Translations under genes and position numbers: made by a program
Shown: in pieces, positions 4,675-63,292 of the stretch
Position numbering within the stretch: the first letter of the stretch is position 1
How the letters are laid out: the number at the start of each line of letters is the position of its first letter
Assembly: GCA_023247255.1 (NCBI GenBank)
Contig: JAHFGV010000002.1
Location: 33,835-97,834 of the forward strand
Reading direction: 5' to 3'
Length of the DNA stretch: 64,000 nucleotides
DNA from: Candidatus Omnitrophota bacterium
GTDB lineage: Bacteria; Omnitrophota; Gorgyraeia; Aquiviventales; Aquiviventaceae
Notes under the pieces: model-generated
Seen by the model: the letters and a program-made list of their open reading frames with translations, nothing else
Databases searched by the model: none
Told to the model about the DNA's origin: nothing

Positions 4675-4752
4675 ATTGTCGATTGCCGATTTTCGATTGA
4701 ACGAAGGTTTTTCAATCGACAATCCAAAATCGACAATCGACAATTCCAAGGC
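4675..4752. repeat. palindromic TCGATTGTCGATT-family element
   Basis: ttgtcgattttcgattgaa ... ttcaatcgacaatccaaaatcgacaa inverted arms. Confidence 0.7.
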
Positions 4753-4782
4753 TGTTTCATGATCCCTTAGTCGAGGCGGGTG

Positions 4783-4843
4783 GCCGACCCGGAGCGAGTC
4801 GAAGACGAGCGGAGGGCGCCGATTCCTCTGGCCATCTGAGTTA
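4783..4843 (+). repeat. third copy of conserved 45-nt motif gcgggtggccgacccggagcgagtcgaagacgagcggagggcgcc plus degenerate tRNA-Thr 3' end
   Basis: Near-identical to 4546-4590. Followed by gattcctctggcca, a degenerate form of aattcctctcgccagc. Confidence 0.6.
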
Positions 4844-4915
4844 GCCTCACGAGGAGTTATGGTATGGTAGGAGTTCTTAGATATTCCAGTTCTGTGCGCT
4901 GATTGCTGTTCTTCA

Positions 4916-5001
4916 AGGGCAGGTGCCGGAGTGGCCAATCGGATCAGTCTGTAAAACTGACGGGCTTACCGCCCTACCCAGGTTCGAACCCTGGCCTGCC
5001 C
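4916..5001 (+). tRNA. tRNA-Tyr (anticodon GTA), long variable arm
   Basis: Acceptor gggcagg/cctgccc, anticodon stem tcagt/actga with loop ctgtaaa, type-II variable arm, T-loop ttcgaac, 86 nt. Confidence 0.8.
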
Positions 5002-5180
5002 ATCGTTTTCAAGATATGCTTACATTTTGCCACAGGCCGGTATTTGTGAAGGGAACCCGTTTGTTCCTGCAAGAAGGGGAGGGTTCGAAGGCCGAACGCC
5101 CACCGCGTTCGGCATTCCGCGGCTGCCCCGATGACAGCCGCTGCAGGAGCCGAGCCGTCGATCAATCAAAAGAGCTGAAG

Positions 5181-5250
5181 GAATTGTCGATTTTCGATTG
5201 AATGAAGGTCTTTCAATCGACAATCCAAAATCGACAATTCCAACAGCTTG
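5181..5250. repeat. palindromic TCGATTGTCGATT-family element
   Basis: aattgtcgattttcgattgaatgaagg...ttcaatcgacaatccaaaatcgacaattcc. Confidence 0.7.
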
Positions 5251-5285
5251 TCACTTGTAACTTGCTACTTGTCACTATTCTTAAT

Positions 5286-5356
5286 GCGGGTGTAGCACAG
5301 TGGTAGTGCGCTAGCCTTCCAAGCTAGTCACACGGGTTCGATTCCCGTCACCCGCT
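5286..5356 (+). tRNA. tRNA-Gly (anticodon TCC)
   Basis: Acceptor gcgggtg/cacccgc, anticodon loop cttccaa, T-loop ttcgatt, discriminator U, 71 nt. Confidence 0.8.
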
Positions 5357-5612
5357 TTTTTGTCTTGTGACGGGAATCGAAGGGAGCCGCGACACAGATT
5401 AACGTCGATCCGACGAATAGGAGGATCGATATTCCTTAGGAGCGGCGGGTGGCCGACCGAAGCGAGCCGAAGGCGAGCGGAGGCGCCGATTCCCGTCACC
5501 CGCTTTTTTGTCTTGTGACGGGAATCGAAGGGAGCCGAGCCTTCGGTCAATCAAGAGAGCCGAGGGAATTGCCGATTGTCGATTTTCGATTGAATAAAGC
5601 TATAAGAATCGG
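5339..5612 (+). repeat. tRNA-Gly 3'-end duplication module (copies at 5339-5390 and 5488-5540, conserved motif at 5440-5487) followed by a half palindromic element
   Basis: gattcccgtcacccgcttttttgtcttgtgacgggaatcgaagggagcc is duplicated. Between the copies lies ggcgggtggccgaccgaagcgagccgaaggcgagcggaggcgcc, which is homologous to the Thr-module motif. Confidence 0.7.
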
Positions 5613-5785
5613 TATTGTTTGGGCTGACCTCCTTTTGCTCCCAACGCGCATTTACTCAGGAGAGCGGAAAATAGGTTGCATTACCGCCATGCCGATTCGA
5701 CGCTGCACTCAGCGCAAGGGGCAACCTTTCATTCGCTCCGCTCAGTAAGATTTAATATGAGTCAACGCGTGCGATGGCCCTGCCG

Positions 5786-5814
5786 TTGACAGTGGGCTCA
5801 AAAGATGCTAGAGT
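5786..5814 (+). promoter_or_regulatory. candidate sigma70-type promoter for rplM-rpsI (TTGACA-17nt-TAGAGT)
   Basis: TTGACA at 5786-5791, 17-nt spacer, TAGAGT at 5809-5814, ~14 nt before the rplM ATG. Confidence 0.35.
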
Positions 5815-5827
5815 GATACCCTTTAGA

Positions 5828-6265: not shown

Positions 6266-6275
6266 GAGCTAACCC

Positions 6276-6761: not shown

Positions 6762-6796
6762 GGCAATCAATTTTCTGCACGAAATGTCTGCTGGTG

Positions 6797-7092
6797 TTAA
6801 GAGTGCGTCCCAGAATCTCCCGTGCCCTGCGCTGGGCCTAGCTGCGAGACCCGCAAGGCGCGAGGATCGCCGCGTACCAGCTCCTGCGGTACGCAAGCGA
6901 CGAGCAACGCCGCGGGACGACGCAGATCGGCCCAGCCAATGGGCAGACTCAGGGTTGCGGCGCCAGACGGCCATCTGCGGCGTCGCTTCTCCTCGACGTA
7001 CCACGGGGGGTACGCCGTCGTCGTCGCTCCTTGCATCTGGCCGTCTGGCGCCGCAACGCAGGGTACGCGAGATTCTGGGACGCACTCTAAGA
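6797..7092. repeat. structured ~300-bp element A with 24-bp terminal inverted repeats and internal 19-bp hairpin (family shared with 55492-55804)
   Basis: Terminal inverted repeat gttaagagtgcgtcccagaatctc / gagattctgggacgcactctaa. Internal stem gttgcggcgccagacggcc...ggccgtctggcgccgcaac. The core is homologous to element B, with compensatory stem changes. Confidence 0.65.
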
Positions 7093-7114
7093 TGACAGTT
7101 ACCAATCCTTATAG

Positions 7115-9351: not shown

Positions 9352-9496
9352 TAAGCATGGCCAGCCTGTTAGGGTGTTAACGAGTGAGCGTGTCAGCGAG
9401 TATGCGGGTTTGTGAAATAGATTGTAACGGGCAAACGCGCCAACTCCCCAACTCGCTAACACGCCAGCACGCCAACTGGCTAACGCGCTAACTCTA

Positions 9497-10345
9497 ATGC
9501 AAGACTCTATACGAAAAGCCGATATCCTGATCGAGGCGCGGCCTTATCTGCAGGCATTCCGGGGTAAGGTGATCGTCGCTAAATATGGTGGCAGCGCGAT
9601 CGATAATCCAACCGCTATGCGCGGCATCCTGGAGGATCTCGTATTCCTGAGCGTGGTAGGGATTCGTGCGGTGTTGGTTCATGGGGGTGGCCCTGCGATT
9701 GCCCGCAAACTGGATTCACTCGGAAAGCAAAGCCGATTCGTGGATGGCATGCGCGTTACGGATCGGTTTACCCTGCGTGTGGTGAATAAAACCCTGGAAG
9801 AAATCAATCGCAGGCTCGTGAGTCAGATTCATCAGCTCGCAGGAGAGGCTGAAGGCCTGACGCCCAAACAAGAGGTCATCGTGGCCGAGCCTCATCTTCG
9901 GGCAGGCGAGTTGGGATACGTCGGTTCGGTGGCCTGGGTGCATACAGGCAGCATCCGTCGGGTGTTTGCACGACAGGCCATTGCCGTCATCTCACCCGTC
10001 GGGGTGGGTAACGGACAGCTTTACAACGTCAACGCGGATGACGTGGCCAGTGAAGTTGCCGCCAGTCTAAAAGCAGAAAAATTAGTTCTTTTGACCAATG
10101 TGCGCGGCATACTCAGCAAACCGGCTGATAGCGGATCGTTGCTGTCGACGCTGTCTGTTCGTAAAGTGACCCAGCTTATCCAGAAGGGAACCATCCAAGC
10201 AGGGATGATCCCAAAGGTCAATGCATGCGTCGAGGCGCTGCGGCGAGGGGTAAAGAAAACGCACATCATCGACGCGGCTTTGCCGCATGCGATGCTTCTT
10301 GAGATATTCACCCAACGAGGGATCGGGACGGAGATTATTCGATAA
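9497..10345 (+). CDS. argB: acetylglutamate kinase
   Basis: VIVAKYGGSAIDNP and VLVHGGGP motifs of amino-acid kinases. Confidence 0.9.
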   Translation: MQDSIRKADILIEARPYLQAFRGKVIVAKYGGSAIDNPTAMRGILEDLVFLSVVGIRAVLVHGGGPAIARKLDSLGKQSRFVDGMRVTDRFTLRVVNKTLEEINRRLVSQIHQLAGEAEGLTPKQEVIVAEPHLRAGELGYVGSVAWVHTGSIRRVFARQAIAVISPVGVGNGQLYNVNADDVASEVAASLKAEKLVLLTNVRGILSKPADSGSLLSTLSVRKVTQLIQKGTIQAGMIPKVNACVEALRRGVKKTHIIDAALPHAMLLEIFTQRGIGTEIIR

Positions 10346-10377
10346 AATGAGGGGGCAAGAGACACGGAGCAAGTTAT

Positions 10378-10447
10378 CATTTCGAATTTCGGATTTTTGA
10401 TTTCTTTTCAATCCGCCACTCGCAATCCCAAATCCGAAATTGAAACT
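10378..10447. repeat. palindromic element, TCGGATTT variant of the TCGATTG family
   Basis: ttcgaatttcggatttttgatttc ... caaatccgaaattgaaac inverted arms in the argB-argD spacer. Confidence 0.55.
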
Positions 10448-10463
10448 TGCCCCATTCTCCTGA

Positions 10464-11666: not shown

Positions 11667-11692
11667 CCCAGCGGAATTGAGAATAGGCCTCA

Positions 11693-22075: not shown

Positions 22076-22117
22076 TAGCCCTCGTTCAAAGACGCTCAGC
22101 CAACTGAGCGCGTGGGC

Positions 22118-22286
22118 TAAGGGTTCGTTAAGAAATAACTGCATCAATTTGATCGGGGGCTTTTGACTCATGGCTGCGTTGCTCATCGCTTACATCCTCG
22201 TCGCGGATGCTCGCTCTTCGCGCCTTGCCCTGAGTCAAAATCCCCAACGGCCAAATAGCGCAGTCATTTCTTAACGAACCCTAACC
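22118..22286. repeat. MITE-like element bounded by 25-bp inverted repeats taagggttcgttaagaaataactgc / gcagtcatttcttaacgaaccctaa
   Basis: Inverted repeat plus an internal ttgactca/tgagtcaa sub-palindrome. A left-half copy lies at 58714-58800. Confidence 0.6.
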
Positions 22287-32328: not shown

Positions 32329-32873
32329 GGGGGTACCCGTGGTGTCTATCGTCGATTTTCGATTTTCGATTGTCGATTGAAAGCCATAGCGTTATCGATC
32401 GACGATCCACAATCCACAATCGACAATTCCATAGAGGTATCCGTGGTTTCACCATGATCGAGGTTCTCATCGCCTCAGTCATTGCTTCCATAGTCATCGG
32501 GGGAACGATGACAGCCTTTGTGACGGCAAGCCGGATGACGCGTCAGCAAAGCGGACCGGCCAATTCCGATGCCGCTTTGTATGTCCAGCAGCTTTTGGAG
32601 GCGATTCGCAATCACGTGGCTGCCGACTCGACATGGTTCAGCACAAGGGTCGGGCCGGTTCCCGCTACGTGGGCGGCTTGGCGAAACGATGATCCCCCAT
32701 TGTCGGCGTCCTGTCCCTCGGCATCTATCGTTTGCCGGACAGATGTGAACAATGGGCGGAAATATTTTATCACCTATGTCGACGACACCTGTGATGATGA
32801 CGGCGATACCAGTGATTGTTACTACGCCGTGACCGTGAGGGTCTGTTGGGATGAGCCGGCCTCGTCATGCTAA
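32301..32873 (+). CDS. type IV pilin-like protein (minor pilin, PilV/FimT-like)
   Basis: G|FTMIEVLIASV class III signal motif (Gly -1, Phe +1, Glu +5). No canonical start near the motif; the ORF reads through palindromic element 32345-32430. Confidence 0.6.
   Translation: MGRNMGQAMRGYPWCLSSIFDFRLSIESHSVIDRRSTIHNRQFHRGIRGFTMIEVLIASVIASIVIGGTMTAFVTASRMTRQQSGPANSDAALYVQQLLEAIRNHVAADSTWFSTRVGPVPATWAAWRNDDPPLSASCPSASIVCRTDVNNGRKYFITYVDDTCDDDGDTSDCYYAVTVRVCWDEPASSC
32345..32430. repeat. palindromic TCGATTGTCGATT-family element inside the pilin leader ORF
   Basis: cgattttcgattttcgattgtcgattgaaagccatagcg...cgacgatccacaatccacaatcgacaattcc. Confidence 0.7.
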
Positions 32874-33606
32874 ACAAGCGTATCCTTTTCGATTGTCGAT
32901 TGTCGATTTTCGATTGAAAGCCATAGCATTGCCAATCGACGATCCACAATCGACGATCGACGATTCCATTGTAGGTATGACTCTGATTGAGGTTATGGTC
33001 TCCCTGACGCTGGCGATGATCGTTCTGCTTGCGGTAACCAGCATCGATGTGACGCGGGTGCGGATTCACGAAGAGCTTCGTGATCGCTCAGGAATTGCAA
33101 CGCCGGAGCATGGGGAGGCTTCCTTGGCTGCTCTCTCTATAGAAAAAGACATCGAGCAGGCCGATCGGATCAATATCATTGCGGATGGCATTCAAGTGCG
33201 GATTCCCGATATGACGATCGCAGGATGTACGGGGACTGTTCCTGATGCCAGTTGCTTTGATGCTGCGGCCAACTACCGCTGGGACCAATACCGGCTTGAC
33301 GCTGACCAGCTGCTTTATTACCGCGGCACCCAAGTGGCCTGCCCCACTCCCACAGTGCTGGCTGAACAGATTGCGGATTTATCGTTTCAGTACGTGAATG
33401 AAGCCCCCGCTCCTCCTGGAGGCGATCCGGCAAACCAAGACAACAACCTGCTTGCCTACACGGTGAAATGGGATAACGCAGATGGGCTAAGCCATGAATT
33501 TCAGGGGGTGGTCAGTCTCAGAGCCTCTGCCTACACGGATGTTTCGACAGGGCTTCAGGCTCCCAATGGAACAGACATCAGTCCACCGCCTACGGTATGT
33601 TCGTAG
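32851..33606 (+). CDS. type IV pilin-like protein (minor pilin, PilW-like size)
   Basis: G|MTLIEVMVSLTLAMIVLL motif. The ORF reads through palindromic element 32886-32967. Confidence 0.6.
   Translation: MSRPRHAKQAYPFRLSIVDFRLKAIALPIDDPQSTIDDSIVGMTLIEVMVSLTLAMIVLLAVTSIDVTRVRIHEELRDRSGIATPEHGEASLAALSIEKDIEQADRINIIADGIQVRIPDMTIAGCTGTVPDASCFDAAANYRWDQYRLDADQLLYYRGTQVACPTPTVLAEQIADLSFQYVNEAPAPPGGDPANQDNNLLAYTVKWDNADGLSHEFQGVVSLRASAYTDVSTGLQAPNGTDISPPPTVCS
32886..32967. repeat. palindromic TCGATTGTCGATT-family element
   Basis: cgattgtcgattgtcgattttcgattgaaagccatagc...caatcgacgatccacaatcgacgatcgacgattcc. Confidence 0.7.
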
Positions 33607-34319: not shown

Positions 34320-34524
34320 GATAAATCAAACCCTTCCGATGAGTCACTTCTTGCTCAAGTGTATCCCGCAGCTTGGAGTGGGCGAGAAGCCGCCCGGTCA
34401 GAGGCGTGGTGGTTTGGGGATCAAACTGATCCACTTGAACGAGTAGCCACTCATCAGAGAATCTGCGACGTAACTTTTGGATGGGTTGACTCTGTTGACG
34501 TTTCATTAAAAATCTGCGCCGCAT
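34270..34524 (-). CDS. hypothetical small protein overlapping the protease gene by 50 nt (+1 frame)
   Basis: ORF only. Its 5' end overlaps the duplicated upstream block of fibre gene 1. No recognisable motif. Confidence 0.2.
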   Translation of the reverse strand: MRRRFLMKRQQSQPIQKLRRRFSDEWLLVQVDQFDPQTTTPLTGRLLAHSKLRDTLEQEVTHRKGLIYLVYGSDTLPQGYAAAF

Positions 34525-34525
34525 A

Positions 34526-34543
34526 CCCCGCCCATGGGTGGGG
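34526..34543. promoter_or_regulatory. near-perfect 18-bp palindrome ccccgcccatgggtgggg upstream of fibre gene 1 (candidate operator)
   Basis: Sits 48 nt before the ATG. A perfect copy ccccgcccatgggcgggg lies at 36623-36640 upstream of fibre gene 2. Confidence 0.45.
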
Positions 34544-34590
34544 AGGAGGCGCAGCCTTTTGATGCCAGCAGTATAACACGAGGTGAGGTT

Positions 34591-36198
34591 ATGTTCAATA
34601 CAGGTGTAAGCTTTCCCCGTCGGCGAGCAACCCGCACTGGTTTGCGAGTCACAAGCGACGAGCGACGAGCAACGATACGTGGGGTTTTTGTAACCATTCT
34701 ATATTTCTGTGGTGTGTTCCTCAGCCTTGCGCCTGCGACGGGGGCGGAAGACGTCACGGTGACGACCTACTACCCCTCTCCGCGCGGAGTCTACGATGAG
34801 CTGCGCACAACCGGCGATGTGAGAATTGGGACGACTTCTGCTCCTGCGGCACGGTTGCACGTGGTCCAGACAAACGCACAAAACGCCTTTCGGGTCGATG
34901 ATGCGAATCCAGATACGACCCCATTCGTCATCGATCAGAATGGCAATGTCGGGATCAAGACGGCAAGCCCTCTGGCTGATCTCCATGTACGAGATGACGC
35001 CGATATAGTAAATCTTCGTGTCACATCGGACAATGAGCGAGCCGGAATTTCTTTATTGTCAGACAATACCGGTGAAGTATTAATCTATACCGAAGACGGA
35101 TCAGATGATTTGCGCTTTCAGGTTGGTGGTACAGATCGTATGACTATTGAAAGTGCCGCTGCTGAGACAAGCATTACGGGTGAGCTAGGGATAGGGACGG
35201 CGAATCCAGAGAGTCCCTTACACATTGTCACTCCAGCTGGGTCCGGTATAAATGAAGTACGTCTTGAAGAGACAGGTGGATCTACCCTGAGTCTGAGCGC
35301 TGGAGGTGGAGTGACCAGGATTGCCTCTAGCGATAATCTACAGATAGAAGCTCCAGGAGGAACCACTCGTATGATCGTGTTGGGCACAGGCAATGTTGGT
35401 ATAGGCGCAGGGAACCCATTGTCCCGTCTCAGCGTAGGAGCTGATGGGTTCGCGGCAACGGCTATTTATGGAGAAAGTGGAGGAGCAGGATCGGGTGTGG
35501 CTGGAAAGGGGGGTGGAAGGGGAGTGGAAGGATGGGCGAGCCTAGGAGCGGGAGCTGTTGCGGGCGTAGCTGGTACTACCATCGATCCAGCGACAATTCC
35601 TGGGGGAGAAATTCCGAATGGTGCGGGTGTATTTGGTTATGGACATACCTATGGAATCCGGGCCGTAGCGACGGACGCCGGGGGCACAGGGGTTTATGGA
35701 AAAGGGCCGGCTTGGGCAGGGGATTTTATAGGCGATGTGCGTGTATCCGATGACCTCTTTGTTGGTAATGATGTAGATGTTCAGGGGGATATTTCGGTAA
35801 CGGGGAACATCACAGGCGATGTTTCAGAACATGTGGATTGTTCAGGGTGTGAAGCGACCGATGTGGTGGTGATCGATCCTGACCACGACCAGCGCCTGCG
35901 CCCATCCAGCAAGGCCTATGACTCGACGGTGGCCGGCGTGATTTCAGAGAAACCGTCTCTAAAGATCGGCGGCAGCCAATCCGAGATCGCCAAGCCCTTG
36001 GCGCTTGCCGGGCTGGTTCGTGTGAAAGCGACGACGGAAAACGGGCCGATTCATCGGGGGGATCTACTCGTGACTTCATCAAAGCCTGGGCATGCCATGC
36101 GGGCCGATCCTGATGCGATCAAACCAGGGATGCTGCTGGGCAAGGCGCTGGAGCCTCTTTCCGAAGGCGATGGGGCGATAGTGATCTTGGTGGAATGA
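34591..36198 (+). CDS. secreted fibre-like repeat protein, paralog 1 (tail-fibre-like NGNVGIGT repeats, Gly-rich core, conserved C-terminal module)
   Basis: Strong RBS gaggtgagg. Signal-anchor VFVTILYFCGVFLSLAPATGA. Repeats of the type L.VV.....AFRVDD..PDTTPFVIDQNGNVGI. C-terminal 115 aa are ~85% identical to paralog 2. Confidence 0.75.
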   Translation: MFNTGVSFPRRRATRTGLRVTSDERRATIRGVFVTILYFCGVFLSLAPATGAEDVTVTTYYPSPRGVYDELRTTGDVRIGTTSAPAARLHVVQTNAQNAFRVDDANPDTTPFVIDQNGNVGIKTASPLADLHVRDDADIVNLRVTSDNERAGISLLSDNTGEVLIYTEDGSDDLRFQVGGTDRMTIESAAAETSITGELGIGTANPESPLHIVTPAGSGINEVRLEETGGSTLSLSAGGGVTRIASSDNLQIEAPGGTTRMIVLGTGNVGIGAGNPLSRLSVGADGFAATAIYGESGGAGSGVAGKGGGRGVEGWASLGAGAVAGVAGTTIDPATIPGGEIPNGAGVFGYGHTYGIRAVATDAGGTGVYGKGPAWAGDFIGDVRVSDDLFVGNDVDVQGDISVTGNITGDVSEHVDCSGCEATDVVVIDPDHDQRLRPSSKAYDSTVAGVISEKPSLKIGGSQSEIAKPLALAGLVRVKATTENGPIHRGDLLVTSSKPGHAMRADPDAIKPGMLLGKALEPLSEGDGAIVILVE

Positions 36199-36604: not shown

Positions 36605-36622
36605 AAAAATCTGCGCCGCATA

Positions 36623-36640
36623 CCCCGCCCATGGGCGGGG
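36623..36640. promoter_or_regulatory. perfect 18-bp palindrome ccccgcccatgggcgggg upstream of fibre gene 2
   Basis: Sits 48 nt before the ATG at 36688, inside the duplicated ~340-bp block 36606-36950 (copy of 34508-34850). Confidence 0.45.
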
Positions 36641-36687
36641 AGGAGGCGCAGCCTTTTGATGCCAGCAGTATAACACGAGGTGAGGTT

Positions 36688-38367
36688 ATGTTCAATACAG
36701 GTGTAACAGGTGTAAGCTTTCCCCATCGGCGAGCAACCCGCACTGGTTTGCGAGTCACAAGCGACGAGCGACGAGCGACGATACGTCGGGTTTTTGTAAC
36801 CATTCTATATTATTTCTGTGGTGTGTTCCTCAGCCTTGTGCCTGCGATGGGGGCGGAAGACGTCACGGTGACGACCTACTACCCCTCCCCGCGCGGAGTC
36901 TACGATGAGCTGCGCACAACCGGCGATGTGGGGGTGGGGGTAACCGGTCCGGTACTCGGCAAGCTGCACGTGGTGCAGACTGCTATCGCTCCTGCCTTCC
37001 GTGTGGAGGATGAGGCTACTGCAACTGAGGTGACGCCTTTTTTGATTGATTTTGATGGAAATGTAGGTGCGGGTACCGGGGCCCCTGGGGCTAAGCTCCA
37101 CGTTGTGCAAGATAACGCTGCGAATGCATTTCGCGTGGATGATGAGGTTCCTCCGGATACCACGCCATTTCTGATTGACCAGAATGGCAGCGTAGGCATT
37201 CAAACAATACCTACAACCACATTGGAGATTGTCGATAACGATGCCAGTGGTGACTCGGTTGTAAAGATCGTCAGCGATGATACAGTCTCTGCCTTTCTTC
37301 AGTTTGTGTATGATGACGCGGTTGATCGGGACTGGAGGTTCTACATCAATGTGGATGGGAAATTGTACGTAGCAGATCAAACAGACGGCCTTAACGTGAT
37401 GATCTTTAATAATAATGGACGCGTGGGAATTGGAACAGATACCCCAGCAGCTGGTTTGGAGGTACAGCCATTTGTAGGGGTCACTGGTGTTAAGGGTGAG
37501 GGGGATGGGGCTGTGGGTGTGCATGGTGTGAGTAATAACAATGTAGGTGTTTTAGGTCAAAGTGCTACTGGTACTGGTATTGGGGTTTCTGGATCCTGCC
37601 CAGGCTGTCTTGGAGTCAAAGGGCAAGGTGCAACTGGTGTGGTTGGGGAGAGCACCAATGTGGGTGGTTTTGGCGTTTCCGGGCAGGTAGCCGATGGAAT
37701 TGGTGTTCAAGGTATCGTGACAGATGGAACTGGTGTTGTAGGTACCTCTACAAATGGTGTAGGAGTTATGGCTACAGGTGGGATTGGGTTTGGAGATGCG
37801 GGATTGATTGCTGAAGGAACAGACGGTGTTATAGCGACAGCAAAAGCAGTCGGAGGAGCTGGTATTCATGCGCTTGATGATGGTGATCCGGCCAGATTAG
37901 CTGGACGCTTTGATGGAGAAGTGGAAGTCAATGGATTGCTTGATGTGAATGGAAATATCGAAGTCAGTGGTAGTATTACCGGAGGAGACGTTGCAGAGTT
38001 TATGGACTGCGTTGGGTGTAAGCCAACCGATGTGGTCGTCATCGATACAGAGCACAATCGGTACGTAAAGCCATCCAGCCGGCCCTATGATTCGACTGTT
38101 GCTGGTGTCGTCTCAGAGAAACCTTCGCTTAAGATCGGAGGCAGTGACTCGGAAATCGCAAAGCCCTTGGCTCTGGCTGGCCTTGTGCGTGTAAAAGCGA
38201 CGACGGAAAACGGGCCTATCAAGCGGGGGGATCTGCTCGTAACTTCATCAAAGCCAGGCCATGCGATGCGGGCGGATCCGGAGCGGATCAAGCCTGGGAT
38301 GCTTTTGGGAAAAGCGCTGGAGCCACTTGAGGAAGGTGATGGAACGATTCTACTCCTTGTCGAGTAA
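36688..38367 (+). CDS. secreted fibre-like repeat protein, paralog 2
   Basis: First ~85 aa and last ~115 aa are near-identical to paralog 1. Divergent Gly/Val/Thr-rich core (GVxGxSTNGVGV repeats). Shares the CxGC plus DVVVID...YDSTVAGV...GDLLVTSSKPGHAMRA C-terminal module. Confidence 0.75.
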   Translation: MFNTGVTGVSFPHRRATRTGLRVTSDERRATIRRVFVTILYYFCGVFLSLVPAMGAEDVTVTTYYPSPRGVYDELRTTGDVGVGVTGPVLGKLHVVQTAIAPAFRVEDEATATEVTPFLIDFDGNVGAGTGAPGAKLHVVQDNAANAFRVDDEVPPDTTPFLIDQNGSVGIQTIPTTTLEIVDNDASGDSVVKIVSDDTVSAFLQFVYDDAVDRDWRFYINVDGKLYVADQTDGLNVMIFNNNGRVGIGTDTPAAGLEVQPFVGVTGVKGEGDGAVGVHGVSNNNVGVLGQSATGTGIGVSGSCPGCLGVKGQGATGVVGESTNVGGFGVSGQVADGIGVQGIVTDGTGVVGTSTNGVGVMATGGIGFGDAGLIAEGTDGVIATAKAVGGAGIHALDDGDPARLAGRFDGEVEVNGLLDVNGNIEVSGSITGGDVAEFMDCVGCKPTDVVVIDTEHNRYVKPSSRPYDSTVAGVVSEKPSLKIGGSDSEIAKPLALAGLVRVKATTENGPIKRGDLLVTSSKPGHAMRADPERIKPGMLLGKALEPLEEGDGTILLLVE

Positions 38368-42990: not shown

Positions 42991-43044
42991 TGCTAATGAC
43001 GTTTTCATTTACAAAGCCTGTCTCTGTGAGTTTTGGGCTTAACG

Positions 43045-43118
43045 AATTGTCGATTGCCGATGGATAGGATCTGGACGGTTTTCAATCCACAATCCAAAAT
43101 CGGTAATCGAAGATTCAA
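43045..43118. repeat. palindromic TCGATTGTCGATT-family element (upstream / 5' region of pilQ)
   Basis: cgaattgtcgattgccgatgg...ttcaatccacaatccaaaatcggtaatcgaag. Confidence 0.6.
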
Positions 43119-43194
43119 TGGACCGCTAGCCTTTAGCTGCCAGTCTCATTTATTCTTGAAACAAGCTCTAGCAGGCTGCGGGAAAACCCTTCGT

Positions 43195-43322
43195 AGTTCT
43201 GGGTTGAGGGTTCAGGGTTCGGGGCAAATACACCATGGCTCATCGGTGAGACGGGTTCTGGCCCCCAGCCCAGAGCCCAGGACCCTGAACCGACTGGCGT
43301 TTTTCAGCATCCTGCTAGTGCG
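43195..43322. repeat. ~115-bp repeat shared with 49035-49148
   Basis: ctgggttgagggttcagggt...acacca..gctcatcggtgagacgggt.ctggcccccagcccaga.cc...gaaccgactggcgtttttcagca.cctgct; ~85% identity. Confidence 0.6.
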
Positions 43323-45047: not shown

Positions 45048-45192
45048 AAGGATTGTGTCATGCTTTATGTGTCATGAGTCATGGAACGACAGCAGACATG
45101 GGAAGTCTTTCATGACACATAAAACATGACTCATGAAACAAACGTGAGTACTGGGTCTTAGAATCATGACTCATGAAACATGACACAAACGT
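45048..45192. repeat. 'catgacac' inverted-repeat element copy upstream of pilB
   Basis: gtgtcatgctttatgtgtcatgagtcatgg ... tcatgactcatgaaacatgacaca. Confidence 0.6.
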
Positions 45193-45218
45193 CGTTGTTT
45201 GAAGCTGAGGAAATCAAC

Positions 45219-48207: not shown

Positions 48208-48217
48208 AATCTGAGGA

Positions 48218-48305
48218 ATTTTCGATTGTCGATTTGCGATTGTCGATTGGAAAAAAGTTTTTGGCTGTGAATCGAGAATCCGGAATTGGCAATCGACGAT
48301 TCATC
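48218..48305. repeat. palindromic TCGATTGTCGATT-family element
   Basis: aattttcgattgtcgatttgcgattgtcgattgg...aatcgagaatccggaattggcaatcgacgattc. Confidence 0.65.
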
Positions 48306-48360
48306 AGTAAGTTATGACAACAGAAAGGAGGGAGAACACACATCAGAGATAGAATGTGGT

Positions 48361-48424
48361 ATTTTCGATTGTCGATGGGTTAGGATAGAAAGGTTTTTCA
48401 ATCGAAGATCTAAAATCGACAATA
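48361..48424. repeat. palindromic TCGATTGTCGATT-family element
   Basis: attttcgattgtcgatgg...ttcaatcgaagatctaaaatcgacaat. Confidence 0.65.
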
Positions 48425-48505
48425 ACTAAGTAGTGGTTTATTGTTCGGCTCATTGTTGAGGATGGCTTCTTAGACATGACAATAGGAAGAACCTAGGAGG
48501 AAACA

Positions 48506-48964: not shown

Positions 48965-49034
48965 TCCGTTTCAAGAGAATTGCGTAAGCACGCGATTCTG
49001 GCAAGCAAGAGAATCTTGCCATGGTGGTTGGACT

Positions 49035-49148
49035 TCTAGGCTCTGGGTTGAGGGTTCAGGGTAAATACACCACCGCTCATCGGTGAGACGGGTCCTGGCC
49101 CCCAGCCCAGAACCCCGAACCGACTGGCGTTTTTCAGCAGCCTGCTGA
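49035..49148. repeat. second copy of the ~115-bp pilQ-leader repeat
   Basis: See 43195-43322. Located between pilin paralogs 1 and 2 and followed directly by the hairpin element. Confidence 0.6.
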
Positions 49149-51374: not shown

Positions 51375-51470
51375 TTCTTCCTGCTTTCCTCCTGCATGTT
51401 CAACCTCCCAGTTTTGTAGAAGCATAGGTATCTATGCTACAATCGTTCGAGCCGAAGTAGATTTGGAAGA

Positions 51471-51512
51471 CGGCTGTTCAATCGAAAATCGACAATCATC
51501 AATCGACAATTC
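51471..51512. repeat. half copy of palindromic TCGATTG-family element (right arm only)
   Basis: gacggctgttcaatcgaaaatcgacaatcatcaatcgacaattcc. Confidence 0.5.
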
Positions 51513-51616
51513 CATGGGGGAGACATCCCGCCCACCCGATCGTTGAAGCAAACCAACTGGGCCCATGCCTTCGGCTGTGGGCCCGATGGCGGGGAGGAGT
51601 CCCACAAGATGAGTTT

Positions 51617-51746
51617 GTGGCACTGATAACCTCTCCCCTCTCAAGGAATCATGAAACTGCCTTGGAATTTTCGATTGTCGATTTTGGATTTTCGATTGGA
51701 AGACGGCTGTTCAAACGAAAATCGACAATCGTCAATCGACAATTCC
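51617..51746. repeat. composite repeat: ~45-bp block plus palindromic TCGATTG-family element (near-duplicate of 58517-58646)
   Basis: gtggcactgataacctctcccctctcaaggaatcatgaaactgcc followed by ttttcgattgtcgattttggattttcgattggaagacggctgttcaaacgaaaatcgacaatcgtcaatcgacaattcc. Confidence 0.65.
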
Positions 51747-51889
51747 ACGGAATGAGTTTGTGGCATTCAAGAACACGCTCCGCGTGGGTCGACATCCCGC
51801 CCACCCATTGGCTGTTCTGCCGTGTCACCTACGGCTTTCGGCGTGGCGCAATGGCGGGGTCGAAATTAATTCGCGGAGGCAAAATTCTT

Positions 51890-51962
51890 GGGGCAGTAGC
51901 TCAGTTGGGAGAGCGCGACATTCGCATTGTCGAGGCCAGGGGTTCGATCCCCCTCTGCTCCA
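51890..51962 (+). tRNA. tRNA-Ala (anticodon CGC)
   Basis: Acceptor ggggcag/ctgctcc with the G3:U70 Ala identity pair, anticodon loop ttcgcat, T-loop ttcgatc, 73 nt. Confidence 0.8.
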
Positions 51963-52318
51963 TTTCTAAACGTCTTGGGGATCGAAGGGAGCCGAGCCTT
52001 CTTTCCTCAACGTCGCCGCGACTTATGGGAGCGGCGACAATCCACTTGGCGAGGCGAGTGCCCGACCGGAGCCCGAACGAAGTGAGGGCGAAGGCGGCGA
52101 TCCCCCTCTGCTCCATTTCTAGACGTCTTGGGGATCGAAGGTCAAGCGCCCGTCGCGCTCGACATTCCGCGGCTGCCACGATGGCAGCCGCTTCAGGAGC
52201 ACCGAGCCTTCGACCAATGAAGAGAGCCGAAGGAATTGTCGATTGATGATTGTCGATTTTCGATTGAACGAAGGTTTTTTAATCGACAATCCAAAATCGA
52301 CAATCGAAAATTCAAAAA
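51950..52318 (+). repeat. tRNA-Ala 3'-end duplication module (copies at 51950-51995 and 52097-52145; motif cccgaccggagcccgaacgaagtgagggcgaaggcggc) followed by palindromic element 52233-52312
   Basis: gatccccctctgctccatttcta.acgtcttggggatcgaagg is duplicated. Same architecture as the Thr and Gly modules at 4436-5612. Confidence 0.7.
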
Positions 52319-52544
52319 GGGAACGCCGACAACCGAGGCCGAAGGCCAAGGAAGTACCGCAATCAGGCAGACGATTGCGGTACCTCCGCTGCTCCACCCT
52401 GCTTAACATAGGTTGCAATATATTATACTACGACCCTCGTTTCACGTTCGTGACGGCCCACGCTAATAAAAACTCTTGAGGTCACATCCGTTCATTGACG
52501 ACTACAGCACGGACATGCTACCCTTTCAAGCAGGAGGAAACGCC

Positions 52545-55491: not shown

Positions 55492-55804
55492 TTAGAGCAC
55501 CTAACATAATGAAAACGTGACTGCGCTGGGATTAGATGCAAGCTGCGCAAGGCGCTCGCCCTTGACAAGCTTGTCAAGGGCGAGGAGGAAGGCATATCAT
55601 GCGGCAAGCGATATGGCGACGACGAGCAACGCAGCGAAGCGAAGCAGATAAGCCCAGCCCTTCGGGTTGCGGCAAAAACTGCCCATCTGCTGCGTCACTT
55701 CTTCTCTGCGTATCGCTAGCTTTACGCCATCGTCGTCGTTCCTTGCATCTGGGCAGTTTTCGCCGCAACGCAGCCATGTTTTCATTATGTTAGGTGCTCT
55801 TAGA
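55492..55804. repeat. structured ~310-bp element B with 25-bp terminal inverted repeats; homolog of element A
   Basis: Terminal inverted repeat cttagagcacctaacataatgaaaac / gttttcattatgttaggtgctcttag. Internal stem gttgcggcaaaaactgccc...gggcagttttcgccgcaac. The shared core gcgacgagcaacgc...cccagcc...atctgcggcgtc...tcgtcgtcg.tccttgcatctg...gccgcaacgcag matches element A. Confidence 0.65.
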
Positions 55805-58227: not shown

Positions 58228-58265
58228 GCAGTAAGCAGCAATAGTAAACAGTAACAGGTGAAACG

Positions 58266-58511
58266 ATGGCGCATAAAGCAGGTGCTGGGTCGACAAAGAA
58301 TGGACGTGATAGCTGTGGAAAACGGCTGGGTGTGAAGTGCTACGCAGGACAGAAGGTTTCAGCAGGATCAATCCTCGTGCGGCAACGGGGAACACCGTTT
58401 AAACCAGGATGGTTCGTCGGAACTGGAAGCGATTGGACCCTCTATGCCGAGATTGATGGAATTGTCCGCTTTCCAAAACCTCGCGTGGTCAGTGTGGAGC
58501 CCCAGGGGTAG
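58266..58511 (+). CDS. rpmA: 50S ribosomal protein L27
   Basis: [16 protein letters not shown] is a canonical L27 N-terminus. Confidence 0.9.
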
Positions 58512-58516
58512 AGCCC

Positions 58517-58646
58517 GTGGCACTAGTAACTTCTCCCTTGCCAAGGCATCATGAAACTACCTTTGAATTTCCGATTTTCGATTTTGGATTGTCGATTGAA
58601 AGACCTCTGTTTAATCGAAAATCGACAATCGTCAATCGACAATTCC
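58517..58646. repeat. composite repeat (duplicate of 51617-51746)
   Basis: gtggcactagtaacttctcccttgccaaggcatcatgaaactacc plus a palindromic TCGATTG-family element. Confidence 0.65.
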
Positions 58647-58713
58647 TTGAGCCCTCTTGTAGTGAAGGCCGTGGCGCAATGGTGGGGTTGAGCCAGCCCC
58701 TACCAGTGGCTAA

Positions 58714-58875
58714 GGGTTCGTTAAGAAATAACTGCATCCATTTGACCAGGGGCTTTTGACCCATGGCTGCCTTGCTCATCGTTTACATCCTCATCAAGGA
58801 TGGAAGCGTATCCATTCGATACTGAAAGCTCAGTAGGCCCAGCGCAGGGCACGGGAGATTCTGGAACGCACTCTT
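58714..58875. repeat. left half of the 22118-type MITE followed by a 45-bp motif identical to the element-A terminus
   Basis: ggctaagggttcgttaagaaataactgcatccatttgaccaggggcttttgac...; then gcccagcgcagggcacgggagattctggaacgcactcttag, the reverse complement of 6797-6841. Confidence 0.55.
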
Positions 58876-58904
58876 AGCCACTGGGTCACGTGACCACTCT
58901 TTTG

Positions 58905-59894: not shown

Positions 59895-61002
59895 GCCGAA
59901 ATTCCATCTCTCACGTGTGGTAGTCAAAATTGGCTCCAGCGTCTTGACGGATGCCGCCGGACGATTGTTGCTCGAGCGTTTCAAATCGATTGTCAAGCAG
60001 GTAGCCGCTTGTGTTCCGGATGCTCCTCAAACCATCCTGGTTTCATCAGGGGCCATTGCCTGCGGCATGGCGATTCTGGGCCTTTCCAGCCGTCCGAAAG
60101 CGCTCGCCCAGCTTCAGGCCTGCGCGGCGGTTGGCCAAGGCCATTTGATGCAGTGCTATACAAAAGCGTTTGGGCAATACGGTATGACCCCCGCCCAGGT
60201 TTTGCTGACGCAGGAGGATTTGGCCGATCGGGGACGATTCCGGAACGCTAAACAAACGCTCCTGACCTTGTTGCACCATCGGGTGGTTCCGATTGTCAAT
60301 GAAAACGACACCGTGTCCGTTGAGGAGATTACCTTTGGCGATAACGATCGGCTCGCGGCACTGTTGAGCGTAGCCGTCGATGCCCAGTTGTTAATCATCT
60401 TATCGGATGTGGATGGGTTTCTGGAAGACGGCCGTCTCATTGAGCGGATCGACACCCTTAATGAGCGTCATCATGCGGCGATTCACGGCAGAGCCAGGGC
60501 TACGACCCGAGGAGGGATGTTTTCGAAGCTGGAGGCCTCGCGCATCGCTGGGCATCATGGCATTCCCGTGGTCATCGCCAACGGCACCAAGCCCTCGGTG
60601 TTGCAGGATCTTTTGGCCGGCCGTCCCGTAGGCACTTTGCTCGTGCCTCCTCGCGAACGTCTGAGTCCTCGAAAATGGTGGATTGCGTTTTCGTTGCGTC
60701 AGCCAAAAGGGCAGTTAGTCATCGATGCTGGCGCTTCCCAAGCCTTGCTTGAGCGTGGCAAAAGCCTGCTCGCCTCCGGTATCTTGGAGGTCAAAGGGCA
60801 TTTTCAAAAAGGTTGCTGTGTCGCCATCACCGATGGCCAACACAGGCAGCTCGCGCGAGGCATCGTCAATTTTTCATCGGCGGAGCTTTTGCGGATTCGA
60901 GGATTGCGCAGTATGGACATCGCTCGGACCTTGGGGGATGCAAGCGTCAGGGAAGTCGTTCATCGCGACCAGTTGGTATTTGCTCGGGATATGCACTCAT
61001 GA
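59887..61002 (+). CDS. proB: glutamate 5-kinase
   Basis: VVKIGSSVLTD amino-acid kinase N-terminus and C-terminal PUA domain. Confidence 0.9.
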   Translation: MSEPKFHLSRVVVKIGSSVLTDAAGRLLLERFKSIVKQVAACVPDAPQTILVSSGAIACGMAILGLSSRPKALAQLQACAAVGQGHLMQCYTKAFGQYGMTPAQVLLTQEDLADRGRFRNAKQTLLTLLHHRVVPIVNENDTVSVEEITFGDNDRLAALLSVAVDAQLLIILSDVDGFLEDGRLIERIDTLNERHHAAIHGRARATTRGGMFSKLEASRIAGHHGIPVVIANGTKPSVLQDLLAGRPVGTLLVPPRERLSPRKWWIAFSLRQPKGQLVIDAGASQALLERGKSLLASGILEVKGHFQKGCCVAITDGQHRQLARGIVNFSSAELLRIRGLRSMDIARTLGDASVREVVHRDQLVFARDMHS

Positions 61003-62285
61003 ACGCCACAGATGTATCCTCAGCGAATGCAGGGATTGAAGAGACAATCGTTGAGGTGGTGAAGAAATCCCGTGAGGCTTCGCGAGCGATTGCCTGTGCG
61101 CCGACGTCGCAGAAGAATCAGGCTTTGTCCCTGATGGCCCAGATGTTGCGCAGCCAAAATCAGCAGATCCTAAAGGCCAACGCCGAGGACGTGGCAGCGG
61201 CAAAAGCGTCCGGGCTTTCCAAAGCCTTGGTGGATCGCCTGAGTTTGACACCGCAGCGTCTGGAGGAGATGGTTCGATCCATAGAGGCGGTCATAGAGCT
61301 TTCCGATCCGGTCGGAGAATTAATCCGCAGTTGGCGGCGTCCGAATGGCCTGGAGATTCGAAAACTTCGGGTTCCATTGGGAGTGGTCGCTATCATCTAT
61401 GAATCTCGGCCCAACGTCACCAGTGACTGCGCCTCGTTATGTCTTAAAAGTGGAAATGCCGTGGTTCTACGCGGGGGCTCCGAGTCGTTTCGATCCAATC
61501 AGGCTATCGGCAGCGTCCTGAAAGAGGCCCTACGTGCGGCGAAACTTCCGGAAGCCACAGTGAGTCTGATCCCGACCGCAGATCGAAGGGGTGTGGACAT
61601 CATGCTGCAACTGGATGCATACATCGATGTCGTGATCCCTCGGGCAGGGGAGGATCTGATTCGCAAAATCACGAGCTCCTCCCGGATTCCTGTCATCAAA
61701 CACGCCAAGGGGATCTGTCATGTCTACGTGGATGCGGACGCGGATTTAGAAATGGCCAAGCGGATCGTGCATAATGCCAAGTGTCAACGGCCCGCTACCT
61801 GCAATGCGATGGAGACCCTTTTAGTGCACAAGAAAATCGCCCAACGTTTCCTGCCGGAGATGATTCGTCAACTGCGAGATTCAGGGGTTGAAATCCGTGG
61901 CTGTCCCCAGACTCAGGCAATGGCTGGCGGGATTATCGAGGCTACCGAACAGGATTGGCAGACCGAGTATCTCGATTTGATTGTGTCGGTAAAAATCGTC
62001 GAATCCCTACAGGAGGCGATTGCGCATATCGGACGATACGGATCGGCACATTCCGATGCCATCGTCACTCAAAATGAACAAACGGCGAACCGTTTCCTCA
62101 AAGAAGTAGACTCGGCGGCTGTTTACGTCAATGCCTCGACACGATTCACCGATGGATTTCAGTTCGGCCTTGGGGCGGAAATCGGCATCAGTACCGACCG
62201 GCTGCACGCCCGTGGGCCGATGGGGCTTGAGGAGCTCACTACCTACAAATACGTTGTGATTGGAAGCGGCCAGTTGAGGGAATGA
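60999..62285 (+). CDS. proA: gamma-glutamyl phosphate reductase
   Basis: ATG at 60999 overlaps the proB stop (ATGA). Aldehyde dehydrogenase family with catalytic Cys region. The ORF-track start 60813 is an unsupported 5' extension. Confidence 0.9.
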   Translation: MNATDVSSANAGIEETIVEVVKKSREASRAIACAPTSQKNQALSLMAQMLRSQNQQILKANAEDVAAAKASGLSKALVDRLSLTPQRLEEMVRSIEAVIELSDPVGELIRSWRRPNGLEIRKLRVPLGVVAIIYESRPNVTSDCASLCLKSGNAVVLRGGSESFRSNQAIGSVLKEALRAAKLPEATVSLIPTADRRGVDIMLQLDAYIDVVIPRAGEDLIRKITSSSRIPVIKHAKGICHVYVDADADLEMAKRIVHNAKCQRPATCNAMETLLVHKKIAQRFLPEMIRQLRDSGVEIRGCPQTQAMAGGIIEATEQDWQTEYLDLIVSVKIVESLQEAIAHIGRYGSAHSDAIVTQNEQTANRFLKEVDSAAVYVNASTRFTDGFQFGLGAEIGISTDRLHARGPMGLEELTTYKYVVIGSGQLRE

Positions 62286-62442
62286 GTACTCCTGTGTCAA
62301 GACCCACTTGCATTGATGCTGGAAGCTGAGCATGTGAGTGAAGGTATGCGTCGAGCAATACCCTCAAGATTCTGGAATAATTTCTAGAGCTTGGTGATGA
62401 CTGAGGTTTTGCAAAATGCATCGAGATTAGTGGCAGCGCTCA

Positions 62443-62625
62443 CGTCTGTGTCATGAGTCATGGAAAGCAAAAGGCGTACTTTGGCCGTGCTTGAGATGCC
62501 TGTTTATTTTCTGCTTTTTCATGACAGATGACTCATGAAACATGACACAATCCTCATTACTTCTCTTGGAATAGGACACAACACTCGGTCAACGCGTTGG
62601 CTATTTTTGCAAGAGCCCAGTGATG
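62443..62625. repeat. 'catgacac' element copy, inverted relative to 864-1010
   Basis: gtgtcatgagtcatggaaagcaaaagg...ctgctttttcatgaca...catgaaacatgacaca, followed by tgttggctatttttgcaagagcccag, the reverse complement of 865-890. Confidence 0.6.
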
Positions 62626-63213
62626 AGTATTAAGGTGATAATTCGGCTCGGTATCTTTGGGGGAACGTTCAATCCCATTCACTGGGGCCATCTGCTGTTG
62701 GCGGAGACGGCGCGTGAAGCCTACACTCTGGACCGGGTCCTGTTTGTTCCCACGTGGCAACCCCCACACAAAACCTCACGAGGACTCTTGCCAGGGTCGG
62801 TTCGATTTAAGCTGGTGGAGTTGGCGATCCACGATCATCCGAGTTTTGTGGCTTCAGACATTGAGCTGAAACGAGGAGGAACTTCCTATACCATTGATAC
62901 GGTCAAGACACTCAAGAAACAATTGCCGAATGCTCAGTTGTTCCTATTAGTGGGGCAAGACCTGTTGGGGGTTCGGTGGTTGGCGTGGGAAGAGATCAAG
63001 CGTTTGTGCACGGTGGTGGTCGCTCATCGGCCAGGATTTCAAAATCCCAAACGCCCCTCCAAGGTTAAATGGCTCCAGATGCCTCCGGTTGCCATTACCT
63101 CTTCCGAGATTCGCAAGCGGGTCCAAGCCGGACGTTCGATTCGTTACCTTGTGCCAACGACCGTAGAGCGTTATATCCAGCAGCATCAGCTCTACCAACA
63201 GGGCAGGGGATGA
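62620..63213 (+). CDS. nadD: nicotinate-nucleotide adenylyltransferase
   Basis: GIFGGTFNPIHWGHL (T/H)xGH nucleotidyltransferase motif. Confidence 0.85.
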   Translation: MMSIKVIIRLGIFGGTFNPIHWGHLLLAETAREAYTLDRVLFVPTWQPPHKTSRGLLPGSVRFKLVELAIHDHPSFVASDIELKRGGTSYTIDTVKTLKKQLPNAQLFLLVGQDLLGVRWLAWEEIKRLCTVVVAHRPGFQNPKRPSKVKWLQMPPVAITSSEIRKRVQAGRSIRYLVPTTVERYIQQHQLYQQGRG

Positions 63214-63221
63214 TCCCACCT

Positions 63222-63280
63222 TTCGAATTTTCGATTGTGGATTGTCGATTGTGGATTGTCCGTTCGATCAATCCGCATTC
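63222..63280. repeat. palindromic TCGATTG-family element (TGGATTG variant)
   Basis: ttcgaattttcgattgtggattgtcgattgtggattgtccgttcgatcaatccgcattcc. Confidence 0.6.
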
Positions 63281-63292
63281 CACGGTGGTGGG

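Follow-up and report, generated by a model that had tools for sequence, protein, structure and literature searches.

What are the palindromic elements that recur between the genes of a 64,000-nucleotide stretch of Candidatus Omnitrophota bacterium DNA (assembly GCA_023247255.1, contig JAHFGV010000002.1, positions 33,835 to 97,834; hereafter the window), and why do several of them stand beside tRNA genes? The elements, referred to here as TCGATTG elements, are intergenic, imperfect, long hairpins whose arms are short tandem arrays of heptanucleotides. They are a new example of a known but unexplained type of bacterial repeat. Behind the tRNA genes lies a second, structured element, and this tRNA-trailing element is most likely the new part of the findings.

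TCGATTK arrays occur at 14 loci in the window, or about one per 4.5 kb. A preliminary description of this DNA had listed 14 positions of an abundant palindromic intergenic family, and all 14 carry the motif. The sequence TCGATTGTCGATT is matched 32 times at one mismatch or fewer (0.20 matches expected) and a 19-mer arm is matched 19 times at three mismatches or fewer (0.05 expected). The hairpin form given in that description stands. The single arm sequence, repeated unchanged around a short loop, does not, since the arms are tandem arrays of 7-nt units that are often unequal in number. Tandem Repeats Finder gives a period of 7 and 3.3–5.3 copies at every arm. A typical copy has the form GGAATT-(KYCGATT)3-4-GAA-loop-TTC-(AATCGRM)3-4-AATTCC, is 70–95 nt long and contains three to five heptamer units per arm. 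Within the unit the GATT/AATC core is constant and the three other positions are variable. The two arms of a copy often have unequal unit numbers or different unit variants, which leaves a mismatch approximately every 7 bp or a 7-nt bulge. The five hairpins tested fold considerably more stably than shuffled sequences, with z-scores of -7.4, -7.4, -5.4, -3.3 and -2.7. An Rfam 15 scan of the whole window at gathering scores returns four tRNAs only; at E-values up to 5 on two tRNA regions, the hairpins give sub-threshold matches to generic miRNA hairpins.

The period of 7 is not confined to this family. A fixed-offset self-similarity scan of the window finds 27 period-7 arrays and 0–2 arrays for each other period from 4 to 11. 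The shuffled window contains one period-7 array. There are at least four heptamer unit families, several of which occur as inverted pairs, and TCGATTK is the dominant one. The TGTGTCA/CATGACA hairpin family is present at 904–1032, 45108–45199 and 62447–62561 and includes a copy pair with 88% identity. The two members of the GGGTTCA/TGAACCC hairpin family, at 43197–43316 and, after a pilin gene, at 49034–49146, are 85–90% identical. One-sided arrays are formed by TCACTGG, CCGCAAT, GCTCAAG, CCTACAG and AGCAGAT units. Most array bases (756 of 818, 92%) are intergenic and so fall in the 15% of the window that lies outside genes. A stringent period-7 array of any family is found in 13 of the 28 spacers of 100 nt or more, and weaker CATGACA and GGGTTCA arrays fill several more. 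An imperfect 8-nt (and 24-nt) tandem repeat, AACGCGCC, with approximately eight copies in the argJ|argB spacer (9426–9505), stands nearly alone among the strong tandem arrays of the window in having another period.

Over-represented heptameric repeats have been recognised in cyanobacteria since 1990, and we know of no description of repeats of this kind for Omnitrophota. The closest kind of known repeat is the heptameric simple sequence repeat (SSR) or short tandemly repeated repetitive (STRR) sequence, as found in Calothrix/Nostoc (STRR and GGGGATT), Xanthomonas (GGGAATC), and Beggiatoaceae and Microcystis (TAACTGA) (PMC4692102, PMC4679880). The window shares with these repeats tandem 7-nt units in at least three copies, an overwhelmingly intergenic location, an over-representation that is unique to period 7, several unit families per genome, and some inverted pairs that are able to form stem-loops. 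The AATC core is shared with the Xanthomonas GGGAATC arrays, which include inverted pairs (PMC4692102). Unlike the known heptameric repeats, most copies in the window are complete hairpins with GGAATT/AATTCC feet, a short loop and three to five units per arm. The host also differs, being a member of the Omnitrophota (Planctomycetes-Verrucomicrobia-Chlamydiae group), and one hairpin lineage is embedded in the tRNA-trailing element. Among bacterial SSRs, those with heptameric units are over-represented (Mrazek 2007, as cited in PMC4692102), and heptameric repeats have no established function (PMC4692102, PMC4679880). Their over-representation has been known since 2007 without an accepted mechanism or function, and the window extends the phenomenon to an Omnitrophota genome, often in the form of complete hairpins.

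Related arrays occur in other genomes. A syntenic Omnitrophota relative with 64% G+C (L059) contains 13 period-7 arrays, several as inverted pairs, built from units that differ from those of the window (TCAGAAG/CTTCTGA, TAGCGTA/TACGCTA and AATCCGC). The exact 20-mer ATTGTCGATTTTCGATTGAA was scanned against both strands of 185,579 species-representative genomes (596 Gb), among which the window's own species was not seen, at least as a contig with several matches to the 20-mer. The scan finds 52 loci, with approximately one expected for a random 20-mer in 596 Gb. They are spread over at least seven phyla, including Acidobacteriota (Terriglobia), Planctomycetota, Verrucomicrobiota (Opitutales), Desulfobacterota, Nitrospirota, Bacteroidota and Cyanobacteria (Microcoleus). 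These loci contain 132 period-7 arrays and 1–15 arrays for other periods. The AATC/GATT core is present in 31 of the 77 arrays that lie more than 150 nt from the searched 20-mer match, and 21 of 53 matches have an inverted partner within 95 nt. The GATT-core unit is present, down to the level of a 20-mer, in at least seven phyla, which points to a common cause; a property of the polymerase or of slippage, a conserved binding factor and horizontal spread are the candidates.

The individual copies in the window differ in completeness and context. H1 (4672–4747) consists of GGAATT, three units, a loop, four units and AATTCC, folds at -45.6 kcal/mol (z -7.4), and is nested in the second trailing element of tRNA-Thr. 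H2 (5180–5241; z -7.4) lies downstream of tRNA-Tyr, after a shared lead-in CCGAGCC..AGAGCTGAAGG. H3 (5565–5597) lies at a truncated second element after tRNA-Gly, where the region 5515–5595 gives a weak match to the covariance model described below. H4v (10378–10447), in the argB|argD spacer, had been called a variant and is one, with a different unit of the ATTTCGR/AATCCG type. H5 (32345–32434) fills the spacer of two pilin-like genes and ends approximately 22 nt before a likely start codon, and H6 (32882–32971) occupies the next spacer of the same cluster. H7 (43037–43121) is upstream of a secretin gene and is followed by a GGGTTCA-family hairpin. H8 (48215–48307) is located just after pilC, and H9 (48358–48437), which is shorter and degenerate, is upstream of the major pilin gene. 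H10 (51475–51517) duplicates the loop and right arm of H11 (51664–51750) with approximately 93% identity at a spacing of 233 nt. H11 itself is upstream of tRNA-Ala, and H12 (52232–52318) is downstream of it, after the shared lead-in. H13 (58564–58650) lies between the rplU region and obg, in a spacer where an rpmA gene is predicted, and H14 (63224–63290), directly after nadD, is a GATTGTS array with a short inverted partner. Half-elements are represented by H3, which has the left arm only, and H10, which has the right arm only. H11 with its flanks (51596–51746) and H13 with its flanks (58496–58646) are 83–87% identical, so that "nearly identical", as had been said of 51617–51746 and 58517–58646, is too strong. 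A direct repeat of 12–13 nt, GAGTTTGTGGCA, flanks the H11 composite, and no other copy shows one.

Further repeats occur in the same areas. GACATCCCGCCCACCC repeats (51524–51540 and 51790–51806) flank hairpins near tRNA-Ala, and CGTGGCGCAATGGYGGGGTYGA repeats (51840–51865 and 58670–58695) form hairpin flanks near tRNA-Ala and after H13. The region 51375–52544 is a mosaic with nested duplications.

The reading favoured here, with moderate confidence, is that these are period-7 intergenic hairpins that originate by slippage or duplication and act as intercistronic stem-loops. The arrays would grow and shrink by slippage or duplication in the 7-nt register, a mechanism proposed for heptameric SSRs in the literature, where polymerase slippage has been tied to the active-site footprint (PMC4692102, PMC4679880). 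The inverted arrangement would be maintained by arm-to-arm templated correction, by selection for the stem, or by both, and whole hairpins with their flanks would additionally be copied by local and dispersed duplication. Because every gene is on the + strand, the hairpins would be part of the transcripts of same-strand operons, either internally or at their ends, and would form stem-loops of approximately 25–30 bp with periodic mismatches. The most likely effect would be that of an intercistronic RNA stem-loop, as for repetitive extragenic palindromic (REP) elements, through 3'-end protection, RNase III-type processing or partial termination. This functional part is proposed with low confidence because RNA folding, compared between the strands as a measure of RNA-level selection, favours the transcribed strand only slightly, for 8 of 12 hairpins and by a mean of approximately 2 kcal/mol.

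Three further observations weigh against this reading. No change in unit number is seen between strains, although only two near-identical assemblies (L060 and L061, 99.94–100% identical) were compared; they have 11 single nucleotide polymorphisms (SNPs) relative to the window, none of which alters any hairpin. Dispersed copies share flanks that are not heptameric (H11 and H13, and the GGGTTCA and CATGACA pairs), which also fits transposition. The AATC/GATT-core units recur across phyla, both in the arrays found by the 20-mer scan and in Xanthomonas GGGAATC (PMC4692102), a recurrence more suggestive of a sequence-specific factor than of neutral slippage.

The shared flanks would also fit an explanation in which the hairpins are non-autonomous transposons, similar to miniature inverted-repeat transposable elements (MITEs), that are moved in trans and in which heptamer arrays happen to serve as the terminal inverted repeats. 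This is unlikely. The GGAATT...AATTCC ends are common to the copies, and inverted ends are present by construction. Dispersed copy pairs (D8, D15 and D19/D20) share 100–150 nt that include non-heptamer parts, the GAGTTTGTGGCA repeat surrounds the H11 composite, and the same 20-mer is found in many phyla. However, there is no consistent target-site duplication across copies, and the units vary in number and order from copy to copy and from one arm to the other. The window contains neither a transposase gene nor a parent insertion sequence, and the 20-mer has no match in 2.9 million viral contigs. The half-elements and the local tandem duplication of H10 and H11 fit segmental duplication instead.

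The cross-phylum recurrence of AATC-core heptamers (PMC4692102) is also what would be seen if the arrays were binding sites of a sequence-specific protein that reads one heptad per monomer. For single-stranded RNA or DNA the reader might be a cold-shock-domain protein, and for duplex DNA a regulator; the hairpin would then be a regulated switch, such as an antitermination switch. The constant 4-nt core with three variable bases in each unit agrees with this explanation, as does the binding of CspB to heptamer repeats with one protein per heptad, as summarised in a review passage of PMC4679880. The explanation is distinctly unlikely, being purely inferential and having no candidate protein; several unrelated unit families are present in one genome, and the relative L059 uses other units.

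Transcription termination is a third possibility, in which the hairpins are Rho-independent terminators of an unusual long-stem type. Their stems are stable, and copies stand behind tRNAs, pilC and nadD. The count of canonical terminator-like sites in the window equals the chance expectation (11 sites, 11 expected), so some other signal must terminate transcription; promoter-like sites are also at their chance count. The terminator consensus scan identifies no terminator-like site at any of the H hairpins, however, and no U-tract or T-run follows the AATTCC foot of the stems, which are A/T-rich. In addition, many copies are in conserved operons directly upstream of the ribosome-binding site (32345, 32882 and 58564), where full termination would be harmful. 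The hairpins are thus very unlikely to be terminators.

REP elements are imperfect palindromes of 20–40 nt with a conserved GTAG or CGTC head, and the gene of the REP-associated tyrosine transposase (RAYT) is usually flanked by REPs. The comparison with REP elements or bacterial interspersed mosaic elements (BIMEs) made in the preliminary description, and with it mobilisation by a RAYT (Y1/HUH) transposase, is highly improbable: the copies resemble REP/BIME (REPIN) sequences in being dense, extragenic, imperfect palindromes between co-directional genes, but they have no GTAG or CGTC head, are two to three times longer, have arms of 7-nt periodicity with a variable number of units, and behave like heptamer families of unrelated sequence, while a Pfam search of the window's open reading frames (ORFs) for the RAYT gene finds no Y1_Tnp (PF01797), other transposase or integrase.

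The placement of the hairpins had been described as biased towards tRNA and pilus genes. Within the window, the tRNA part of this statement holds, as all five tRNA-flanking spacers of 100 nt or more contain a copy, compared with 6 of the 23 others (hypergeometric p ~0.005). The pilus association is marginal and the sample is small (4 of 7 pilus-cluster spacers and 2 of 16 of the rest). Only 2 of the 52 loci of the 20-mer in other phyla adjoin a tRNA, so the link to tRNAs does not belong to the heptamer family as such.

The sequence 3' of tRNA-Thr, tRNA-Gly and tRNA-Ala has a common plan, in which an element of approximately 150 nt (range about 130–180 nt) trails the tRNA gene. Behind tRNA-Tyr the module is found in part. 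The tRNA is followed by a short spacer and by an anti-T-arm stretch of 10–15 nt, which is tRNA-specific and is complementary to the T-loop, the 3' strand of the T-stem and the first acceptor bases. Next are GAAGGGAGCC, a stem (P2) that encloses a hairpin (P2b) with a CGACGAAUAGGAG loop, and AUUCCUUnGGAG. These are followed by GGGTGGCCGACCCGGAGCGAG, a variable hairpin and GAGCGGAGGGCGCC, and the element ends in an exact copy of the same tRNA from the T-loop to the discriminator. All copies in the window are on the + strand. Copy a after tRNA-Thr (4469–4613) scores 142.5 bits with the covariance model R1 and has, at its end, an exact tRNA-Thr 3'-end duplicate (4592–4608). In copy b after tRNA-Thr (4622–4842; 98 bits), H1 replaces stem P2b, and the terminal copy of the tRNA-Thr 3' end (4821–4837) has diverged at three positions. 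The copy after tRNA-Gly (5367–5509; 138.1 bits) contains the tRNA-Gly 3'-end duplicate at 5488–5504, and the copy after tRNA-Ala (51972–52120; 107.7 bits) contains the tRNA-Ala duplicate at 52099–52115. The duplicates after the Thr, Gly and Ala genes are exact over 17 nt, as they are in 10 metagenome loci.

The element is not restricted to this genome. Its 21-nt box is present in 22 Joint Genome Institute (JGI) metagenome contigs with 43–71% G+C, and approximately 17 of the 22 have the same architecture. A tRNA gene is typically found directly upstream of the metagenome copies on the same strand (Arg, Pro, Ser, Gln, Lys, Met, Leu, Tyr or Thr). The element is found behind at least 11 tRNA types, and each copy has the matching 3' end. 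Several contigs (L062, L070 and L075) contain tandem arrays of the element with periods of 127 and 153 nt.

A consensus structure and the covariance model R1 were built from an alignment of 15 copies. R1 recovered two copies that the pattern search had missed, one of which follows a tRNA-Thr with a tRNA-Tyr after it, the order also found in the window. The stems show strong covariation. In an alignment of 23 copies, standard pairs make up 95.8% of the paired positions, compared with 79% after shuffling and 28–50% when the partner is slid by one to three columns. Changes on both sides are found in 14 of the 22 pairs (76 cells, compared with 24 after shuffling); this alignment was fitted to the model, so its counts lean towards structure, and an unfitted MAFFT alignment already showed the same covariation. 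The element has no Rfam 15 match, and literature searches found no description of a tRNA-trailing element or of a miniature tRNA-targeting element.

The hairpins and the tRNA-trailing element are linked through the P2b position. In copy b, the covariance model spans H1 as a long insertion at the place where P2b is usually found. Four tRNA-linked hairpins (Thr, Tyr, Gly and Ala) have a common lead-in, CCGAGCCTTCGGTCAATCAAGAGAGCCGAGGGAATT (family D7, 75–96% identity), which matches the GAGCC...GAUCA...GGAGCC segment of the element's long form in L062 and L063. The shared lead-in and the model that spans H1 indicate that one lineage of the tRNA-trailing element carries the heptamer hairpin in P2b and has, by what would be a mobile step, spread to the Thr, Tyr, Gly and Ala loci. 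The tRNA-adjacent heptamer copies are not independently targeted to tRNAs; the apparent bias arises because the hairpin is a passenger in one stem of the tRNA-trailing element. The canonical P2b stem of the Gly copy, GTCGATCC/GGATCGAT, is close to the heptamer unit, and for this reason the heptamer array may have grown out of P2b.

The duplicated tRNA 3' ends bear on how the element came to lie where it does. The other tRNA genes of L066 and L083 have an encoded CCA; in these contigs the tRNA copy linked to the element lacks it, and the distal duplicate, after GGCGCC, has it. The same CCA asymmetry is present in L071 and L079. Because the distal copy keeps CCA and the gene-proximal copy does not, the distal copy is taken to be the displaced original 3' end. 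The divergence of the copy at 4821–4837 fits a copy that has been released from selection, and the tandem arrays fit repeated integration into a regenerated site. Together, the CCA asymmetry, this decayed copy and the tandem arrays favour an insertion that brings a replacement 3' end. A tentative conclusion is that the module represents an undescribed, widespread class of miniature elements that insert in the tRNA T-loop and bring a replacement 3' end. The element might move as a folded single strand, its hairpin mimicking the target duplex.

The likeness to known integrative elements is partial. As at phage and integrative and conjugative element (ICE) attachment sites, the insert lies between direct repeats of the 3' part of the tRNA (T-loop to end). 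As in tRNA-targeting integrative elements, there are tandem arrays, and the downstream copy keeps the encoded CCA and decays. In contrast to a classical integrative element, the tRNA-trailing element is only about 130–180 nt long, occurs behind its many tRNA types, and has no integrase gene within or adjoining it; its neighbours look like housekeeping genes (rplM in the window; in L073, L079 and L064, apparently glmU, rpe and hom). The conserved purine-rich core and the covarying stems resemble an RNA or a folded single strand, which also counts against a classical integrative element. The element's own hairpin reproduces the target sequence as a duplex, in which it may resemble folded single-strand recombination sites such as integron attC and the CTX-phi attP. 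In its tandem layout the element is similar to the 178-bp repeats of Escherichia coli tyrT, in which tandem units downstream of the tRNA gene each open with the last ~19 nt of the tRNA. The tyrT repeats are known as a single-locus oddity, whereas the tRNA-trailing element recurs behind many tRNAs in many metagenomes.

Alternatively, the element may be a new structured RNA that is co-transcribed with tRNAs, and its five GGA/GGAG motifs would suit a sponge for a protein or for ribosomes. Two other proposals were rejected. An RNA-mediated origin of the CCA-bearing duplicate, by reverse transcription or template switching on a mature tRNA, does not fit the order and orientation of the parts; moreover, the CCA in the duplicate follows the genome's own CCA-encoding habit, which favours a displaced original 3' end over an RNA-mediated one. 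A tRNA-like mini-helix formed by the E-box and the duplicated 3' end is also excluded as a general T-arm pairing, since the E-box is constant and the T-stem varies. The CCA asymmetry, the tandem arrays and the decaying displaced 3' ends make up a testable model of the tRNA-trailing element. Should it prove to be mobile or to be a functional RNA, it would be a new member of the few known structured mobile elements of very small size or tRNA-linked RNAs.

A second, shorter type of trailer is found at 5075–5179 and 52125–52231, after tRNA-Tyr and after the first Ala element. It consists of an anti-T-arm stretch, GAAGG, a hairpin, GACATTCC, a hairpin GCGGCTGCC..GGCAGCCGC, CAGGAGC, the shared lead-in and a heptamer hairpin, and no E-box follows. 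On the minus strand of L083 (280–345), TAGCGTA heptamer arrays are found immediately after the tRNA-trailing element, with the tRNA-Thr/tRNA-Tyr order of the window. The same TAGCGTA unit is present in the Omnitrophota relative L059.

The window has a G+C content of approximately 54%, its GC skew is positive, and the cumulative skew curve climbs over the full 64 kb. The + strand holds essentially every credible gene and all four tRNA genes (window 1–64000), which is an extreme co-orientation with replication. The tRNA genes are Thr, Tyr and Gly, within 4384–5356, and Ala, at 51889. The housekeeping genes are ftsH, folP, pdxJ, rplM-rpsI, asd, an arg cluster, dap/lys genes, pan genes, uvrA, exbBD, rng, rplU, obg, proBA and nadD. 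There are two type IV pilus/type II secretion-like clusters, with pilin-like genes, pilMNO, a secretin, pilB, pilC and several prepilins. For RplM, the best named homologues (68–72% identity) come without exception from Candidatus Omnitrophota metagenome-assembled genomes, and the gene order rplM-rpsI-asd-argJ-argB is common to the window and those contigs, which makes an uncultured Omnitrophota bacterium the most likely source.

The repeats affect the annotation of these genes. Because they overlap tRNA genes and repeat modules, the ORFs at 4398–4700 and 51617–52246 are spurious, and the preliminary description was correct on this point. It was also correct that the N-termini of the ORFs at 32301, 32851 and 43033 are repeat-derived, as their starts read through hairpins; the true starts are likely at about 32457, 32985 and 43318, respectively. 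The heptamer arrays thus lead gene callers to several wrong gene starts and to two spurious ORFs. The practical cost of such repeats lies in spurious ORFs, in false N-terminal extensions in automatic annotation, and in broken short-read assemblies.

Several other repeats are present in the window. Two adjacent large hypothetical genes without a Pfam match (34534–36198 and 36631–38367) lie beside the pilin-like cluster. Their 5' regions (34508–34830 and 36605–36939) are 95–99% identical, and their 3' segments (35814–36113 and 37983–38282) are 77% identical, a pattern that points to a recent tandem duplication or gene conversion. Each gene contains an in-frame run of the AGCGACG heptamer. A 110-nt repeat with 75% identity is present in the rpsI|asd spacer (6952–7061) and in the spacer between a hypothetical gene and rng (55664–55773), and could represent either a further repeat family or a leader RNA ahead of asd and RNase E/G. 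Position 7062, just past the end of the first copy, is the exact break point of two other assemblies. Between L060 and the window, 8 of 10 SNPs cluster at 55598–55735, around the second copy. A 95-nt repeat with 91% identity is found upstream of panD (22115–22209) and upstream of obg (58708–58802), where it sits just downstream of hairpin H13.

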